DNA of 64,000 nucleotides from Candidatus Magasanikbacteria bacterium RIFCSPHIGHO2_01_FULL_41_23. Lineage in GTDB: Bacteria; Patescibacteriota; Patescibacteriia; Magasanikbacterales; UBA922. The stretch lies in contig MFPT01000002.1 in NCBI GenBank assembly GCA_001782805.1, positions 69,401 to 133,400 of the forward strand, in the 5' to 3' direction. Shown here one piece after another: positions 48,908 through 64,000 of this stretch (positions are counted from its first letter, which is position 1; each line of letters opens with the position of its first letter). Both the position numbers and the translations under genes were made by a program. Under the pieces are notes generated by a model. The model saw nothing but the letters and a program-made list of their open reading frames with translations. It did not search any database and was not told the origin of the DNA.

Positions 48908-49052
48908 ATTCTATAGTACACTCCTTTGGCTGATTTATTTCAAATAAACTTAAAGAATCCATCCAAAAGAACCTATTCTTATTGACAAAAAATGATAAAA
49001 TAATTATTCTTACGAACAGTCTAGCGCAATCAACAGCGCTACGAGGTTAGAA

Positions 49053-49961
49053 ATGGACGGAATTCCGGTTTTGGACATGTCTGAGTTCGGGGCTCATCCC
49101 GAACAGGACAAGCGTATCGCCGACTTGATCGGCGAGAACGCGAGAACGCTCAGCTTCATGGCCATCACTGGCCACGGAGTCGAAAACTCGCTCATCAACG
49201 ACGCGTTCGAGGCCATGCGCCAGGTCTTTCAGACCGGCATGACCGAGACGGAACGTCTCCACTACGAGTTCCCCGAGATCGGGCGTCAGGTGGGCTACAC
49301 GCCACCCGACACCGAACAATCGGTGGGACACGCGCTCAAGAACCGCATGCGCTTCTGGCACGTCATGGATCCCAAGTGCGGAATCCGGAACGTGTTCCCC
49401 AGCGAGGTTCTGGAGTTCGAGCGTGTCATGCTGGATCTGCATGCTGCGCTCAAGGGATTCGCGGCCAAAGTGCTCCGAGCCGTGGCCATCCATCTCGGCC
49501 GCGACCCCGAGTTCTTCGTCCGCTGGATCGAGGATGGCGCGAACCTGCTCCGCCCCATCCACTACCCGGCCCTGAACGGCGATGAGAATGTGGAACGCTC
49601 GGGCTCTCACACCGACATCAACCTCATCACCATCCTCGCGCCGGCCACTGTTCCAGGTCTCCGAGTAATGGGACCGGACGGCCAGTGGATCGACGCCAAC
49701 AACCCGCCCGGCACGCTCATCGTCAACTTCGGGGACATGATGCACATGCACACGTTCGGCGAGTTGAAGACGACTCTCCACGAAGTGCACAATCCGGGAA
49801 CCGCGTGCCCGGATCGGTACTCCATCCCCATCTTCATCCACCCGAACGGTCGGCGCATGCTCGTGGGTACCCAAGCCTACCTGCTCCGTCGCCTTCGTCA
49901 GATCAAGCTCATCGGAGAGCTCCCGCCGAACCAGATCGACTACCAGGACATCGAGTCCTAG
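49053..49961 (+). CDS. 2-oxoglutarate/Fe(II)-dependent oxygenase (isopenicillin N synthase-like superfamily), GC-rich foreign gene
   Basis: HTD...H facial triad (SGSHTDINL ... HEVHNPG). About 62% GC against about 38% flanks. ORFs on the other strands of this region are composition artefacts. Confidence 0.7.
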   Translation: MDGIPVLDMSEFGAHPEQDKRIADLIGENARTLSFMAITGHGVENSLINDAFEAMRQVFQTGMTETERLHYEFPEIGRQVGYTPPDTEQSVGHALKNRMRFWHVMDPKCGIRNVFPSEVLEFERVMLDLHAALKGFAAKVLRAVAIHLGRDPEFFVRWIEDGANLLRPIHYPALNGDENVERSGSHTDINLITILAPATVPGLRVMGPDGQWIDANNPPGTLIVNFGDMMHMHTFGELKTTLHEVHNPGTACPDRYSIPIFIHPNGRRMLVGTQAYLLRRLRQIKLIGELPPNQIDYQDIES

Positions 49962-58710: not shown

Positions 58711-59040
58711 ATGTCACAAAGAAATCGAGGGGTGGAACTCAACTTCTGGGGAGATATGTCGTTTTCTGTTGGTGCGGAATGCACTGACATGAATCCGTTC
58801 CTGCAAGCCTTGGTTTTGGCGCAACATGGAATGACTTTGGAGGACATTAAACCGCCAAAGAAAAGCCCTGAAGAACGGATTGAGACTGTCTTCATTGAAG
58901 GTCTCACGGATGATGAGCTGAGGATCATCAAACAACTGTTCGATGAAGGTCGACATAATAACTTGACCGGACGCATGATTCTCTCTGCCTACCGCGCCGG
59001 ACGCAGGGACGAGAAGGAGGACAACAGACGTCGGTCATGA
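58711..59040 (+). CDS. hypothetical 109-aa protein, GC-rich (about 50%) foreign-looking gene
   Basis: GGGAGGAG RBS 4 nt before the ATG. Composition differs sharply from its flanks. No recognisable motif. Confidence 0.45.
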   Translation: MSQRNRGVELNFWGDMSFSVGAECTDMNPFLQALVLAQHGMTLEDIKPPKKSPEERIETVFIEGLTDDELRIIKQLFDEGRHNNLTGRMILSAYRAGRRDEKEDNRRRS

Positions 59041-59055
59041 AGATGACGCAAGGCT

Positions 59056-59131
59056 AAGGAGGAAAAAACCACCCGACGCCTGTTGAGATTCTAAATAATT
59101 AGAGTTTCAGCAGGAGGATAACGGGTGATTT
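59056..59131. repeat. about 80-bp direct repeat R2 (hairpin-forming, terminator-like), right flank of NYN / GC-rich-ORF cassette
   Basis: aaaaaaccacccgacgcc ... aggagg..cgggtgattttttt. The A-run/stem/T-run geometry suggests a bidirectional terminator between convergent genes. Confidence 0.6.
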
Positions 59132-59134
59132 TTT

Positions 59135-59776
59135 TTATGGACGAAAACCGGTTTTGATTAAATTTTGAATAGGCAAAAATAATGGCTGTGGCAATTCATC
59201 CCAGGCAAACCAATTCCAACATTCCAATTTTTGCGGTTCCATATTTACCACTTCACCGGCATCATAATCTGCAACAACATAAATAGTAATATAGTGCTTA
59301 TCTTCAGTTTCAAATACATCATTGGTCGCGGTGATAAAACGAATATTTTTGATGGTAATACCGACTTCTTCCATAGTTTCTCGTTTCGCGCAGTCTTCGT
59401 ATGATTCACCAAATTCAAGATGTCCGCCTGGAAAACCCCATGTTCCGTTTCCGTGAGCATTTTTTCTTTGTCCAAGTAAAACTTTACTATCTTTTACGAT
59501 AATTACACCTAATCCGACTTTTGGTCTTTTTAGTTGTTGCTCTGTATTAATTTCTTCAATAAATAAAAATCGCGGCCGATTTCCCCATTCCCATTCCACA
59601 TTTTCCAAAAACACTTCAGCCGGACGGACCATAAATTTGCAATCCAGCGGAGTATCGTAAAGCGCTTCGTACAACACCATGCCTCCCCCATCCCAATCTT
59701 CGGAATTTTTGACGACTTTATGAACACGATACAAATTGCCTTTGTAATGACGATAGATTCCTGATTTTATTTCCAT
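59135..59776 (-). CDS. DUF1653-NUDIX hydrolase fusion protein
   Basis: N-terminal YRHYKGNLYRV (DUF1653-like). C-terminal Nudix box GFPGGHLEFGESYEDCAKRETMEEVG. Confidence 0.65.
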   Translation of the reverse strand: MEIKSGIYRHYKGNLYRVHKVVKNSEDWDGGGMVLYEALYDTPLDCKFMVRPAEVFLENVEWEWGNRPRFLFIEEINTEQQLKRPKVGLGVIIVKDSKVLLGQRKNAHGNGTWGFPGGHLEFGESYEDCAKRETMEEVGITIKNIRFITATNDVFETEDKHYITIYVVADYDAGEVVNMEPQKLECWNWFAWDELPQPLFLPIQNLIKTGFRP

Positions 59777-59806
59777 AACACAAAGTGAGTTTTTTTGATT
59801 TCAACT

Positions 59807-61183
59807 TTATTTTAATTTTCGCAAACTGCGTTGAAACGTAATCGCGAACCGATGCGCTTCATCGCGCACGCTAATCAGAAGTGCTTGATTTTGACTTACC
59901 CATTGTACAACAGCTCGTTCTTTATTGCCACTTGTTCCGAGCGGACTTGTGGTGAGCGAAGTTGAACCAGTCGAGGGAAAATAAAAATCATTACGTTTAC
60001 GCTCCGGACCTTTGGCAATGCCGACCACGGGAATGGCGATTTTTAATTCTTGCAAAATTTTCACCACGCGATTAACTTGTGGCGCGCCACCATCAATTAA
60101 AAAAATATTCGGATATGGCCATTCCGTATGATGCAGGCGCCGACGAATCACTTCATCCAAACAATCCACATCACTTTGGCCAACGACCGTGCGAATTTTA
60201 AATTTACGATATTGTGATTTGAGCGGTTCGCGAGAATTGAATACGACCATACTTCCCACTTTTCCGGTTGTGCCTAAATTGGAAATATCATAGCCTTCAA
60301 TACGAATATTTTTTGTTTCATTTTTTTGTTCCAAATCAAAAAAATTAAATGGCTTGTCCTGACTTGTACCGAGCGAAGTCGAGGTAGCCATGTCGAAGGA
60401 AAAAAAATCTTTGTTAATGAGCGCCACATCTTGAATTGCGTTAAGCGCGCGCAATTGATTACGCAAACGTCCCGCCTCTTCATATTCTTGCGAAGTGCTG
60501 GCCTGTTTCATAGCGCGTTCAAACGTCCGAATCACACTTTGTTTTTTTCCGTCTAAAAATAAAACCAACGGCCGAATTACTTTTTTATTATATTCACGTG
60601 CGCTGATTTCATTCGTGCAAACACCCAAACATTGACCGAGTTGATAATAAAAACATGGTTTGATCGCTTTTAATTTTTGGGTTTTGAATAATGAATTTTT
60701 CTGACAAGTGGAAAAATAAAACAAACGCCGCAAAATTTTCATTACTTCGCGTGTGTTTAATCCTGGATACGGACCAAATACTGCGCGAAATTCTTTTTTA
60801 TTTTGGTGCAATTCGTGCTGTCGTAATGTGCCGACTAGCGGATACGCGTCATTGCTAATCGTAATATAATTCCAGCTCTTATTATCTTTGCCCAGCACAT
60901 TATATTTAGGCTGAAATTTTTTAATGTAGACTGCTTCCAAAATCACTGCCTCCAAAACCGAATCAGTTGTTTTCCATTTGATATCCGCGATTTCATGAAG
61001 CATCTGTTCAATCGGACGAATTGTTTTTTTACCGATAAAATAACTGCGCACTCTATTTTTGAGCGATGTGGCTTTGCCCACATAAATCAATTCACCGTTT
61101 GCATGATAATACAGATAAATGCCAGCTAGGTCAGGAACAATTTTAATACAATCTAAAATTTTTCTGGAAATGGGAAAATTCAT
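59807..61183 (-). CDS. uvrC: UvrC-like excinuclease (GIY-YIG plus RNase H-like endonuclease domains; lacks C-terminal HhH)
   Basis: GIY-YIG (GIYLYYHANGELIYVGKATSLKNR..Y), central Cys-containing UvrC region, endonuclease domain (EGYDISN..GKVGSMVVF ... RDEAHRFAITF). 458 aa is short for UvrC. Confidence 0.7.
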   Translation of the reverse strand: MNFPISRKILDCIKIVPDLAGIYLYYHANGELIYVGKATSLKNRVRSYFIGKKTIRPIEQMLHEIADIKWKTTDSVLEAVILEAVYIKKFQPKYNVLGKDNKSWNYITISNDAYPLVGTLRQHELHQNKKEFRAVFGPYPGLNTREVMKILRRLFYFSTCQKNSLFKTQKLKAIKPCFYYQLGQCLGVCTNEISAREYNKKVIRPLVLFLDGKKQSVIRTFERAMKQASTSQEYEEAGRLRNQLRALNAIQDVALINKDFFSFDMATSTSLGTSQDKPFNFFDLEQKNETKNIRIEGYDISNLGTTGKVGSMVVFNSREPLKSQYRKFKIRTVVGQSDVDCLDEVIRRRLHHTEWPYPNIFLIDGGAPQVNRVVKILQELKIAIPVVGIAKGPERKRNDFYFPSTGSTSLTTSPLGTSGNKERAVVQWVSQNQALLISVRDEAHRFAITFQRSLRKLK

Positions 61184-61418
61184 AAAATTGCAAAATTACC
61201 TCCATTCATCTCATCATTTAATATCATAAAAACTATCTTGTCAAAAAAAGCAACTTTTATTCCGAACAAATATTATCCACAGCCATAACTGGACATTAAC
61301 AAAATTACTGGTATATTTCTTATATATGAAGTTAACAAGCGCCAATCACAATTCTTATTTTGCATGGTATTGGATCCCCCATAACGCTTGGTGCGATTAG
61401 TTTTTTTATAAAAGTTTA

Positions 61419-61459
61419 AAAAAATCGTCCCGAGCATAGTCGAAGGACGATTTTTTATT
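61419..61459. terminator. bidirectional Rho-independent terminator-like hairpin
   Basis: aaaaaaatcgtcc..ggacgattttttatt: a GC stem flanked by an A-run and a T-run. Confidence 0.45.
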
Positions 61460-61539
61460 GTAAAGAGAATTTTTTTAGTCTCAACAGCACAGGGTTGTCG
61501 GGACAAAAGATAGTTCTTTTGGAAAAGGAGTGGGAAAAG

Positions 61540-62067
61540 ATGAAAGGAATCACAGTTTCCTTGCCGGTTCAGATTGGAATCGGCCTCGGGATTGAATACT
61601 TCGGAATGGTCCCGGTTGAACCACAAGTTCAGCTGGACTCAATACGAGTTTATCCTGTTAGTGAGAATGGTGAGTCCGGACGGGTGACTCATTCCAACCG
61701 GATCGTGGTTGATCCGAATGATCAGAACTACGTTGCAGTGGTGAAGGCCATTCACAAGGTTCGTGATCGAAAGGATTTGAACTTCGGCCATGTGATCAAA
61801 GTCGCGTTGCCGAATCCAATCGGTTACTCGACCGGAGAGAAGATCATGTTCGTGGTCGTTCGTGAAGTAAGCTTTACGACCCGCGTCTGCCATGACATCA
61901 AGAACCGAGATGGTGTATCGGGCAAACATGCTGATGAAACCGTCCGGATGGCGATGCGACCGCGATCCAAATGCGCCAACTGGCACGCAATCGTGGATGC
62001 CTTGGCTAAAACGCTTCCGCAAGGAAACAAGACAGACAAAGGAGAAGCAGGCTATGCATCTCTCTGA
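61540..62067 (+). CDS. hypothetical 175-aa protein, GC-rich (about 52%) foreign-looking gene
   Basis: AAAGGAG RBS. Clear compositional shift from its flanks. No motif recognised. Confidence 0.45.
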   Translation: MKGITVSLPVQIGIGLGIEYFGMVPVEPQVQLDSIRVYPVSENGESGRVTHSNRIVVDPNDQNYVAVVKAIHKVRDRKDLNFGHVIKVALPNPIGYSTGEKIMFVVVREVSFTTRVCHDIKNRDGVSGKHADETVRMAMRPRSKCANWHAIVDALAKTLPQGNKTDKGEAGYASL

Positions 62068-62278
62068 AATTCTCCCGCCAGGTCTCCTCTCCGGAGACAA
62101 TAACAGTATCTTTCTGTCATGCCGGTGTCCTACCTGCAACAAAAAGCATCTGCCCGGCCAACTCAGGTTGATCGTCGCCGGAGCCCAACGCGGACTCATT
62201 GTCTGCGCGCATCACACTGATCCAGTCGCCGCGATCGAAATCGATCACGAGCTGCGCTGGTACATCGGTGTGATATGA
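62054..62278 (+). CDS. hypothetical 74-aa Cys/His-rich protein (possible zinc-binding), overlaps the previous gene by 14 nt
   Basis: AGGAGAAG RBS. CRCPTC...CAHH motif. Same GC-rich block. The overlap suggests translational coupling. Confidence 0.35.
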
Positions 62279-62330
62279 CGGTTTGGTGTTTCCCGTTCAA
62301 AACACCAGTTCCAACGCGCACCGATATGTT

Positions 62331-63602
62331 ATGGATGCGCTGAGAATTAAAAATATGAATTTATTTTTTAAAACAAGTTATGACGCTAACCACGCTGGTT
62401 ATTTTGGTGAATTTGGCGCCAGCTTTGTACCTGAGTTATTATCTCCTGCCCTAAAAAAATTAACAATTGAATATGAAAAAATAAAAATCGATCCTATTTT
62501 TAAAAAAGAATTAATGGATTTATACCAAAACTATTCCGGCCGTCCCACACCATTATATTTCGCGGAAAATTTAAGCAAAGAATTGGGCGGCGCGAAAATT
62601 TATTTAAAAAATGAAGGATTAAATCACACGGGCGCACATAAAATAAATCATTGTTTGGGTCAAGCCTTGCTGGCCAAACGAATGGGTAAAACCAGATTGA
62701 TTGCTGAAACCGGCGCCGGCCAACACGGGCTGGCGACAGCAACCGTAGCCGCGAAATTTGGTTTTAAATGCACGGTTTATATGGGCGCTGTTGACGTCGA
62801 ACGTCAGAGGCCAAATGTACTGTGGATGGAACAATTAGGTGCGGAAGTAATTCCGGTTGAGTATGGGAGCCAACGACTCAAAGACGCGGTCATGGCAGCA
62901 CTTCAAGACTGGATCACGCATGTGGATGACAGTTATTATTTGCTTGGTTCAGTGCTCGGGCCGCATCCATATCCATCAATGGTACGCGATTTTCAAAGTA
63001 TTGTTGGTTTGGAAGTGAAAGAACAAATTCAAAAAAAAGAAGGCCGTTTGCCGGATTATCTAATTGCCTGTGTTGGTGGTGGCAGTAACGCGATTGGTTT
63101 GTTTAATGCCTTTTTAGATGATAAAAATGTTCAAATGATCGGCGTTGAAGCCGGAGGAAAAGGAATTGAAAAAATCGGCGAACACGCTGCGCGTTTGCAA
63201 GGAACACAGCGAAAAGGCGTAGTGGAGGGATTCAAATCATTTTTTCTGACTGATGCTGATGGGCAAGTCCAACCAACACACAGTATTTCCGCAGGATTGG
63301 ATTACGCGGGTATCGGTCCCCAACATGCGCATTTATTTGACCAAAAACGCGTGATATACCACTACGCCACTGACGGCGAGGTAGTTTCCGCGTTTCAAAA
63401 ATTGACCAAAACTGAAGGTATTTTCCCCGCACTGGAATCAGCGCACGCAGTTGCGGAAGCGATCAAGTTGGCGCCAACATTATCAAAAGATAAAATAATT
63501 GTCGTAAATATTTCCGGACGCGGCGACAAAGATATTTTTACGATTGGAAAAATAATGGGTGATGAAAAATGGAAAACATATTTACGAACCATTTCAGAAT
63601 AA
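62331..63602 (+). CDS. trpB: tryptophan synthase beta chain
   Basis: [13 protein letters not shown]-terminus, PLP-lysine [17 protein letters not shown]. The start could be TTG 62283, ATG 62331 or ATG 62355. Confidence 0.9.
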
Positions 63603-63605
63603 CCA

Positions 63606-64000
63606 TATGCAAAAATTGAAATTGATGACGCATGCCGTGATTGGATACCCGACACTGGCAAAAACTCGCGAGCTTATAAAAGTTATGGCCGCGAGCGATG
63701 TTGATTACATTGAATTACAAATCCCTTTTTCCGATCCATTGGGAGATGGTCCAGTCATTCGGCGCGCAAACACCGTGGCTCTGCAACAAAAAACCAGAGT
63801 TGAAGATGCCTTTATTTTGGTCACGCAATTACGAACAGAGGATAAAATTGCGACTCCATTTTTTTTCATGACATACTTTAATATAATTTTTTCATATGAT
63901 CCTGAAAAATTTTGCGCGCGTGCAGCGAGTTGTGGCGTCCAAGGCTTGATTGTCCCGGATTATAATCCTGATTTAGATACACGGGAAAAATTACAAAGCA
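63606..64000 (+). CDS. trpA: tryptophan synthase alpha chain (truncated by window end)
   Basis: ELQIPFSDPLGDGPVI is the TrpA active-site region. Starts 3 bp after trpB. Confidence 0.85.

Follow-up and report, generated by a model that had tools for sequence, protein, structure and literature searches.

Leader-peptide transcription attenuation of trp operons, as exemplified by trpL of Escherichia coli, is a textbook system: tryptophan codons are clustered in a short open reading frame (ORF), an intrinsic terminator precedes the structural genes, and the distal leader codons can pair with the 5′ arm of the terminator to form a mutually exclusive antiterminator. In the at operon of Bacillus subtilis, a leader with three Trp codons (rtpLP) precedes rtpA, which encodes the 53-aa zinc protein anti-TRAP, and the efflux gene ycbK. 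Bacteria of the candidate phyla radiation (CPR, or Patescibacteria) have tiny genomes, their hosts supply most of their amino acids, and their gene regulation is hardly understood. Here we describe a locus in the uncultured Candidatus Magasanikbacteria bacterium RIFCSPHIGHO2_01_FULL_41_23 that bears comparison with both systems. It lies in a stretch of 64,000 nucleotides (contig MFPT01000002.1, positions 69,401 to 133,400 of the forward strand), which we refer to as the window and whose numbering we use, on the plus strand unless stated otherwise. Two overlapping genes without described relatives, ORF1 (61540-62067) and ORF2 (62054-62278), stand between a predicted attenuator (61326-61459) and the tryptophan synthase genes trpB and trpA. 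In the reading we consider probable, at roughly 0.68, both ORFs are real genes, coupled in translation and restricted to certain lineages, and they occupy the promoter-proximal position in a single leader-ORF1-ORF2-trpB-trpA operon.

On computational evidence, the region from 61326 to 61459 is a ribosome-mediated leader-peptide attenuator with lineage-specific compensatory changes. The leader ORF (61326-61400; 24 codons, MKLTSANHNSYFAWYWIPHNAWCD, and a stop) lies between uvrC and ORF1 and contains three Trp, two Tyr and one Phe codons in a cluster, the Trp codons falling at 61365-61367, 61371-61373 and 61389-61391. Homologous leaders occupy the same position in related loci, namely L084 (MKLRSNHISFAWYWTARNAWRG), L004, L006 and L081 (MKSKQTFNFSWYWTLHRLVR), L082, and L030 (MKHNQIFASVCWFYTAP). 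The aromatic leader is thereby conserved across six lineages; the WYW core is kept in five of the leaders compared, and L030 carries WFY instead. None of the leaders is preceded by a Shine-Dalgarno sequence. Downstream lies a hairpin (61419-61459) whose arms, AUCGUCC (61424-61430) and GGACGAU (61445-61451), come before a U tract; it has a folding energy of −16.5 to −19.8 kcal/mol and runs of A and T on its flanks. In every lineage a strong hairpin with a U tract comes within about 25 nt of the leader, and its stem sequence differs from lineage to lineage. An earlier note on this DNA had called 61419-61459 a bidirectional terminator hairpin. The strong hairpin and its A and T runs are as described there, but rather than a stand-alone bidirectional terminator we see the terminator of an attenuator. 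The same note had remarked that regulatory elements of trp genes might be expected at this position, and a leader peptide and attenuator do lie directly upstream of the pair.

The 3′ end of the leader ORF, up to and including the first base of its stop codon (61386-61398, GCUUGG-U-GCGAUU), is complementary to the 5′ arm and loop of the terminator (61423-61435, AAUCGU-C-CCGAGC), and the duplex calculated with RNAduplex, −17.5 kcal/mol, was matched by only 3 of 1000 shuffled sequences. Across the lineages the corresponding duplexes range from −15.1 to −17.7 kcal/mol, values reached by 1-10 of 1000 shuffles. The first antiterminator helix, GCUUGG/CCRAGC, is common to the lineages; the second varies together with the terminator, being GCGAU/AUCGU in the window, GCGG/CCGC in L084, and GCG/CGC in L004 and L082. 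Pairing within a lineage is stronger than cross pairing in the window (−17.5 versus −13.1 to −16.6 kcal/mol) and in L084 (−17.7 versus −14.0 to −14.8 kcal/mol); L004 and L082 have the same terminator stem, and their own and cross pairings are indistinguishable. In L084, L004 and L082 the free RNA folds at its minimum free energy (MFE) into a long antiterminator, with the terminator fully opened. Rfam returned nothing at its gathering threshold in the window or the six related loci; the best match below threshold was Phe_leader (20 bits against a threshold of 55), and the matches of a scan by E value were at chance level. A full-text literature search found no description of leader-peptide attenuation in Patescibacteria, and the window contains no tRNA or transfer-messenger RNA.

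We propose that transcription would start at about 61324 and enter at once the aromatic-rich leader (F-A-W-Y-W ... W). With ample charged tRNA-Trp (and Tyr or Phe), the ribosome would reach the leader stop and cover 61386-61398, the terminator (61424-61456) would form, and transcription would end there. A ribosome stalled at the WYW codons (61365-61373) would leave 61386-61398 free to pair with 61423-61435. We infer that it is a stall with the second Trp codon (61371-61373) in the A site that would free the RNA from 61386 onward, whereas a ribosome at the stop codon would bury it. Once the antiterminator had formed, the polymerase would continue through a hairpin in the 5′ untranslated region (UTR) into ORF1, ORF2, a 3′ hairpin and trpBA, so that read-through would depend on starvation and the genes would be co-transcribed.

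A promoter-like site (61290-61317; TGGACA-16 nt-TATATT, with TG before the −10 element), which agrees with the consensus at 10 of 12 positions and is a consensus match only, ends 8 nt upstream of the leader ATG. Given this spacing and the missing Shine-Dalgarno sequence, the leader mRNA is probably leaderless, or nearly so. Sites of the form TTGCAC/TTGCCA-17 nt-TTAAAT precede the leader in L004, L081 and L082. From 61460 to trpB, a scan of the plus strand gave no other convincing promoter-like site and no terminator-like site, and since nothing of either kind separates them, we read leader, ORF1, ORF2, trpB and trpA as one operon. On the minus strand, a promoter-like sequence (TTGAGA-16-TACAAT, 61484-61457, 10 of 12 positions) lies inside the conserved 5′ UTR, and L084 has it too; transcription from it would run antisense into the terminator of the attenuator.

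The tryptophan synthase beta gene, trpB, occupies 62355-63602 (TIGR00263, E = 6.8e-182, alignment from residue 15; PALP), with an alternative start at 62331. The ATG at 62355 is backed by the TIGR00263 alignment and by the orthologue in L084; the gene call on L085, a contig identical to the window over this locus, is 62331. ORF2 had been said to end 4 nt before trpB, which does not hold: 62283 is the start of a mechanical TTG reading frame only, and the actual spacer is 52-76 nt long and structured. The alpha subunit gene, trpA (63607-64000, continuing past the end of the window; alternative start 63562), was identified by PF00290 on L084, L085 and L086. In the gene calls of these three contigs the operon contains trpB and trpA only, and the called genes adjoining it include no other trp gene. 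An operon confined to trpBA suggests that indole is salvaged and that tryptophan is not made de novo.

The sizes, coordinates and 14-nt overlap first given for ORF1 and ORF2 were all recovered, as were their Shine-Dalgarno sequences, and we retain the proposal of translational coupling. ORF1 encodes a basic orphan protein of 175 aa (isoelectric point 9.3) and ORF2 a protein of 74 aa whose start overlaps the end of ORF1; AGGAG stands 9-10 nt upstream of both ATGs. The 739-nt module is 52.0% GC, as the earlier note had estimated, against a window mean of 40.2% by our measurement (z = 2.8); the note had put the host at about 38%. A GC content this high is reached by only 1.2% of windows of the same size and is exceeded solely at 49.0-50.0 kb, by an unrelated island with 62% GC. 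GC content shifts abruptly at both borders of the module. At codon positions 1, 2 and 3 it is 0.59, 0.39 and 0.55 in ORF1 and 0.61, 0.44 and 0.65 in ORF2; GC at third positions (GC3) is 0.36 in trpB and uvrC.

That these are genes is supported by a second Magasanikbacteria lineage. An exhaustive phmmer search of 1.84 billion representative proteins returned, besides a fragment of ORF1 itself, one true homologue of ORF1, P0002 (178 aa, 36% identity, E = 5e-13), which is located on the 14-kb Logan contig L084. The order of genes there is that of the window: uvrC on the minus strand, a small leader ORF, a terminator, P0002, an overlapping ORF of 76 aa, trpB and trpA. The earlier note had suggested looking for the two genes side by side in other genomes, and here they are found together, in the same trpBA setting. 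The 76-aa ORF is the orthologue of ORF2 (tblastn E = 2.5e-17). Frames, lengths, GGAGG sites and the overlap of start and stop (14 nt in the window, 17 nt in L084) are kept, and insertions and deletions preserve the frame, even though just 30-60% of the nucleotides within the ORFs are identical, compared with about 72% in trpB and uvrC. Between the window and L084, protein identity is 63.5% for UvrC, 74.2% for TrpB, 32.3% for ORF1 and 42.1% for ORF2. The dN/dS ratio (nonsynonymous to synonymous substitution rates) of ORF2 is about 0.37, and ORF1 is saturated at synonymous sites. Conserved blocks in ORF1 include ITxxLP, IGLGIEYFG, EVSFTxRV and ANWxAIV; both known ORF2 sequences retain C25-P-x-C28, H32, C51 and a C-terminal WYIGV. 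In the light of these comparisons we conclude that ORF1 and ORF2 are protein-coding and evolve much faster than their neighbors. Since the pair is present in L084, whose UvrC is 64% identical, it is as old as the split between the two lineages or older, and no recent insertion.

Searches of Pfam, PHROGs, NCBIfam and PADLOC with ORF1, ORF2, the antisense ORF and the orphan ORFs of the relatives gave nothing significant. A word-indexed protein search found no match to ORF1 and only ORF2 itself for ORF2; a two-sequence profile of the fused ORF1 and ORF2 recovered P0002 only; scans of genome, viral and metagenome collections with back-translated ORF1 yielded no match; and tblastn of phage and plasmid collections found no match to the pair. 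Profile searches of the Protein Data Bank (PDB), akin to the checks the earlier note had proposed, gave no significant match for either protein. Its statement that neither belongs to a nameable family thus stands, and the homology to well-characterised proteins that it had named as grounds for giving up its interpretation was not found. It had also pointed to a zinc site, CRCPTC...CAHH, in ORF2. Of this, the CPxC motif is conserved together with H32 and C51, and the CAHH portion is not. Matches of ORF2 to zinc ribbons are all below significance (Zn_ribbon_Com, E = 0.11; eS27, Tim15 and L32 in the PDB, E = 1.2-3.6), and the conserved residues suggest a small CCHC zinc-binding protein that may act with ORF1. 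Our working reading is that the pair may be starvation-induced accessory proteins and not enzymes of the Trp pathway.

The logic, though not the sequence, recalls rtpLP-rtpA-ycbK, where a Trp-codon leader likewise controls a small cysteine-rich protein at low charging of tRNA-Trp, and the equivalent unit in L004 ends in a LysE-type exporter. We found no sequence similarity to that system and see no TRAP here, and control by terminator and antiterminator differs from the T-box and translational coupling of B. subtilis; the relationship is one of analogy and not of membership. The parallel with trpL extends to the clustered Trp codons, the terminator ahead of the structural genes, the mutually exclusive antiterminator and the trp genes downstream. 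The differences lie in the CPR host, the seemingly leaderless leader transcript lacking a Shine-Dalgarno sequence, the mixed run of aromatic codons (F-x-W-Y-W) in leaders whose relatives also precede a Phe hydroxylase gene, the two orphan genes and two conserved hairpins between attenuator and trpBA, the restriction of the operon to trpB and trpA, and the lack of an Rfam leader family at threshold. The device is of a known kind, ribosome-mediated attenuation; its layout is unusual, combining a leaderless aromatic leader, orphan genes, conserved hairpins and a variable slot.

Several points weigh against the operon we favor. When the ribosome footprint is masked, the equilibrium MFE structure still prefers the terminator, so that antitermination needs the usual kinetic argument. 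MAFFT set the terminators of the lineages out of register, and the co-variation we describe therefore lacks a formal counting of pairs. Co-transcription of ORF1-ORF2-trpBA and induction by Trp starvation are most likely, yet promoter, read-through and co-transcription are all predicted, and the strong conservation of the 5′ UTR could mask an internal promoter or another regulatory device missed by a simple scan. The pair is known from two lineages only. Single-sequence AlphaFold2 models are unusable, with mean confidence scores (pLDDT) of 38 for ORF1 and 42 for ORF2, and together with the lack of any profile or PDB match this makes function at the protein level a guess.

Conserved hairpins flank the pair on both sides. 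The first, at 61463-61520 (−20.5 kcal/mol, z = −3.2), lies in the 5′ UTR between the terminator and the ribosome site of ORF1, and analogous long hairpins follow the terminator in L084 (z = −2.1) and L081 (z = −4.3). The second, a motif of about 29 nt (62279-62307, CGGTTT-GGTGTTT-CCCGTTCA-AAACACC-A), comes directly after the ORF2 stop and has no U tract; its general form is (A)TCGGTTW-GGTGTT(T), a loop with CCG, and AACACC-A. When the window is compared with L084, DNA identity in both hairpin regions reaches 88-90%, the 5′ one being the most conserved stretch of the locus. The 3′ motif was found first by blastn, then by an exact-pattern scan of metagenomes and finally with a covariance model, which identified eight copies at this locus (one each in the window, L084, L004, L006, L082 and L030 and two in L081) with E values from 1e-4 to 6e-14. 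The model found no credible copy outside the locus in 0.74 Mb, and the number expected by chance in the window is none. The stem is invariant among the significant copies, so the 3′ hairpin is deduced from its sequence and not from covariation. We set aside as chance a minus-strand match in L084 (6293-6328, E = 0.014), which falls within the conserved GFG region of trpA, and a haloarchaeal match in L083; a motif-like hairpin in L073 with an apparently compensatory stem (GGCCTTT/AAAGGCC) scored 9.5 bits (E = 1.5) and was not counted. That hairpin, which resembles the motif at our locus with compensatory stem changes, follows a GC-rich (about 65% by eye) orphan ORF of 73 aa beside uvrC (L073 2620-2400, minus strand), with a homologue in L003.

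After the 3′ motif, every lineage has another hairpin, each of different sequence. In the window it lies between ORF2 and trpB at 62316-62340 (GCGCACC...GGAUGCGC) and is lineage-specific. In L081 (4060-4090) and L082 the element is the palindrome TGTGA-N6-TCACA, and in L084 (4405-4425) it is AGTAA-N6-TTACT; these resemble a CRP/FNR-type operator or may instead be a second RNA hairpin, and the palindrome of the window (GCGCACC...GGATGCGC) is a different one. We also considered the hairpin and a downstream TATAAT as a sigma-70 promoter and rejected this, the −35/−10 spacing being 12-13 nt.

The space between these hairpins is filled differently in sister lineages. An orphan ORF B (102 aa) occupies it in L004, L081 and L082, and ORF C (81 aa) in L030. 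L006, L081 and L082 have one more orphan, ORF A (121 aa), on the opposite side of the leader. GC3 in ORF A, ORF B and ORF C is about 0.6 where measured, and the 3′ motif follows each of them, as it follows ORF2. L001, the closest relative by UvrC, has neither cassette nor hairpin motif. ORF B of L081 differs from that of L004 by three nonsynonymous and no synonymous changes, although the adjacent uvrC has a synonymous divergence (pS) of 0.38, and the block from leader to ORF B is 96-100% identical between these two loci. Between L081 and L082, identity is 88% for the ORF A proteins but only 49% for ORF B. By these comparisons the locus looks like a recombination-prone accessory slot, with a history decoupled from that of its flanks. 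Just beyond the cassette hairpin of L030 (about 9340-9065, minus strand), a promoter-like TTGACA is followed by approximately 230 nt of GC-rich, ORF-free sequence and a clean intrinsic terminator; the stretch has no Rfam match and may be an undescribed small RNA.

What lies downstream of the slot varies as well. In L004 the WYW leader is followed by the orphan ORF, a biopterin-dependent hydroxylase gene and the LysE exporter gene. In L081 and L030 a convergent gene follows the orphan ORF, so that the attenuator seems to control the orphan ORF alone; this in turn argues that the orphan product is itself a target of aromatic amino-acid control and not a mere passenger. In L001 (6962-6888, minus strand), a Tyr-rich leader (MHHAHKFLKTYRLYSLSSRATWYY, then a stop) and a terminator directly precede the gene for a biopterin-dependent aromatic amino-acid hydroxylase, which looks like a second attenuator in the same clade, of the Tyr type and without an orphan cassette. 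Judged by the predicted peptides, leader type tracks the downstream gene, with WYW before trpBA and a Tyr-rich leader before the Phe hydroxylase gene of L001.

One may speculate further that attenuator, 5′ hairpin, one or more hypervariable GC-rich ORFs and 3′ hairpin make up an undescribed, starvation-triggered cassette locus of the CPR, in which ORF1, ORF B and ORF C are one fast-evolving family and the primary product, alleles are swapped at the hairpin flanks, and trpBA or the Phe hydroxylase and exporter genes are optional passengers. The product would, for example, be an effector or regulator that helps host-dependent cells to gain aromatic amino acids. We think this broader picture rather unlikely. 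ORF1 of either lineage, both alleles of ORF B, and ORF C all have the tripeptide ANW in their C-terminal 40%, but this was noticed post hoc; 0.63% of random triples share any tripeptide in that region. The three proteins also have a similar N-terminus of the [IV][TS]L.P type. The shared ANW hints at one family, and is suggestive only: hhalign gives a probability of 0.6%, no cross-match is significant (the strongest, between ORF C and ORF B, has E = 0.4-2.9), and comparisons by BLASTP, hhalign, hidden Markov models and phmmer gave no support for relating ORF1 to either ORF B or ORF C, or ORF2 to ORF A. The arrangement resembles integron cassettes in that apparently unrelated small ORFs share one slot, the same 3′ hairpin element and an upstream promoter. 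Unlike in integrons, the genes called near the slot (NYN, NUDIX, uvrC, trpBA, a methylase and a restriction enzyme) include no integrase, the hairpin element spans only about 29 nt and has a single stem of 6-7 bp where attC sites are 57-141 nt long with paired R and L boxes (R″/L″ and L′/R′), and the motif is confined to a single locus, where homologous recombination in the conserved flanks explains the exchange equally well.

An unlikely account is that ORF1 and ORF2 are a recently acquired foreign module, unrelated to tryptophan, that landed by chance before trpBA. The module does depart from its surroundings in composition (GC 0.52 versus 0.40; GC3 0.55-0.65 versus 0.36), it has no homologues beyond two lineages, the slot in relatives holds other orphan ORFs or, in L001, none, and there are signs of recombinational exchange at the locus. 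However, the same pair stands at the same place in L084 despite the divergence of UvrC and TrpB, and its high GC3 is retained there (GC 0.56 and GC3 0.62-0.64 for the pair, compared with 0.41-0.46 for the L084 trpA, uvrC and trpB), which is unlike the amelioration expected after an old transfer. The pair also lacks a promoter of its own and sits inside the attenuated unit, the phage and plasmid collections gave no match to it, and the genes called in the roughly 4 kb to each side include no mobility gene. The elevated GC3 of the slot ORFs may reflect foreign origin or GC-biased gene conversion. Of the description of the pair as an inserted foreign module, then, we keep the orphan status and the deviant composition, and comparison shows the slot to be variable; recent insertion and a self-contained operon we do not keep.

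Two small, overlapping, fast-evolving and patchily distributed genes of deviant composition also bring to mind a type II toxin-antitoxin system or a defense module, here one that would arrest growth when aromatic amino acids run short, in keeping with the starvation-coupled expression predicted from the attenuator. We judge this quite improbable: searches of Pfam, PADLOC, PHROGs and NCBIfam matched neither protein to a toxin, antitoxin or defense domain, the pair lacks a separate promoter through which it might regulate itself, and the slot of the sister lineages holds a single orphan ORF and not a pair.

It is highly improbable that the ORFs are chance open frames in stop-poor, GC-rich DNA that acts as RNA or DNA. 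Three long frames do overlap here, one of them an antisense ORF of 186 aa, none has a family match, and the noncoding hairpin flanks are far more conserved than the ORFs. Against this, the protein-level similarity to L084 falls in exactly the frames of ORF1 and ORF2, with frame-preserving indels and conserved ribosome sites and overlap, while the antisense frame is broken in L084; GC at second codon positions is below that at the first and third, and the amino-acid composition looks protein-like. That the abrupt GC borders mark a chimera of GC-rich foreign reads with an AT-rich CPR contig, an assembly artefact of the kind the earlier note had warned of, has a negligible chance of being true, because three retrieved contigs from separate ENA/Logan assemblies (L085, L086 and L087) each match the window at 100% identity over 3.6-5 kb of 59001-64000, both junctions included, the exact ORF2 protein is indexed on 24 contigs or more from assemblies of ENA, Logan and JGI, and the diverged locus in L084 has the same junctions.

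With the attenuated ORF1-ORF2-trpBA operon as the preferred reading, the locus offers a clear and testable case of ribosome-mediated attenuation in the CPR, in which leader type matches the downstream enzyme. The orphan pair, and possibly a wider family marked by ANW, is predicted to be tied to starvation for tryptophan or aromatic amino acids and would provide a handle on how such cells respond to a failing supply from the host. The locus also presents a small, recombination-prone slot between conserved hairpins, where the turnover of GC-rich orphan genes far outpaces that of the genes around them. If the proteins are neutral hitchhikers, what is left is a trpBA operon under ordinary attenuation that also carries two uncharacterised genes.

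Three observations concern the surroundings. The divergent flank, which served as an anchor of synteny, is uvrC (59807-61183, minus strand); the best species representative for its product is a Candidatus Magasanikbacteria protein, 69% identical. The 62% GC island mentioned above (49053-49961, GC3 0.82) is sharply bounded, has a promoter-like TTGACA near 48983 and encodes a 302-aa 2-oxoglutarate-Fe(II) oxygenase (PF03171, 1.4e-16; DIOX_N, 3.4e-11) between rplU and a gene resembling those for extracytoplasmic function sigma factors; it is a candidate for recent horizontal transfer, and a far better one than the ORF1-ORF2 pair. Downstream of trpA, beyond the window, L085 (7570-8082) and L086 (5713-6027) differ in contigs that are otherwise 100% identical: L085 has a gene for an Eco47II-like restriction enzyme beside a DNA methylase gene, and L086 has an ORF of 104 aa in its place, which is strain-level variation of a restriction-modification system.

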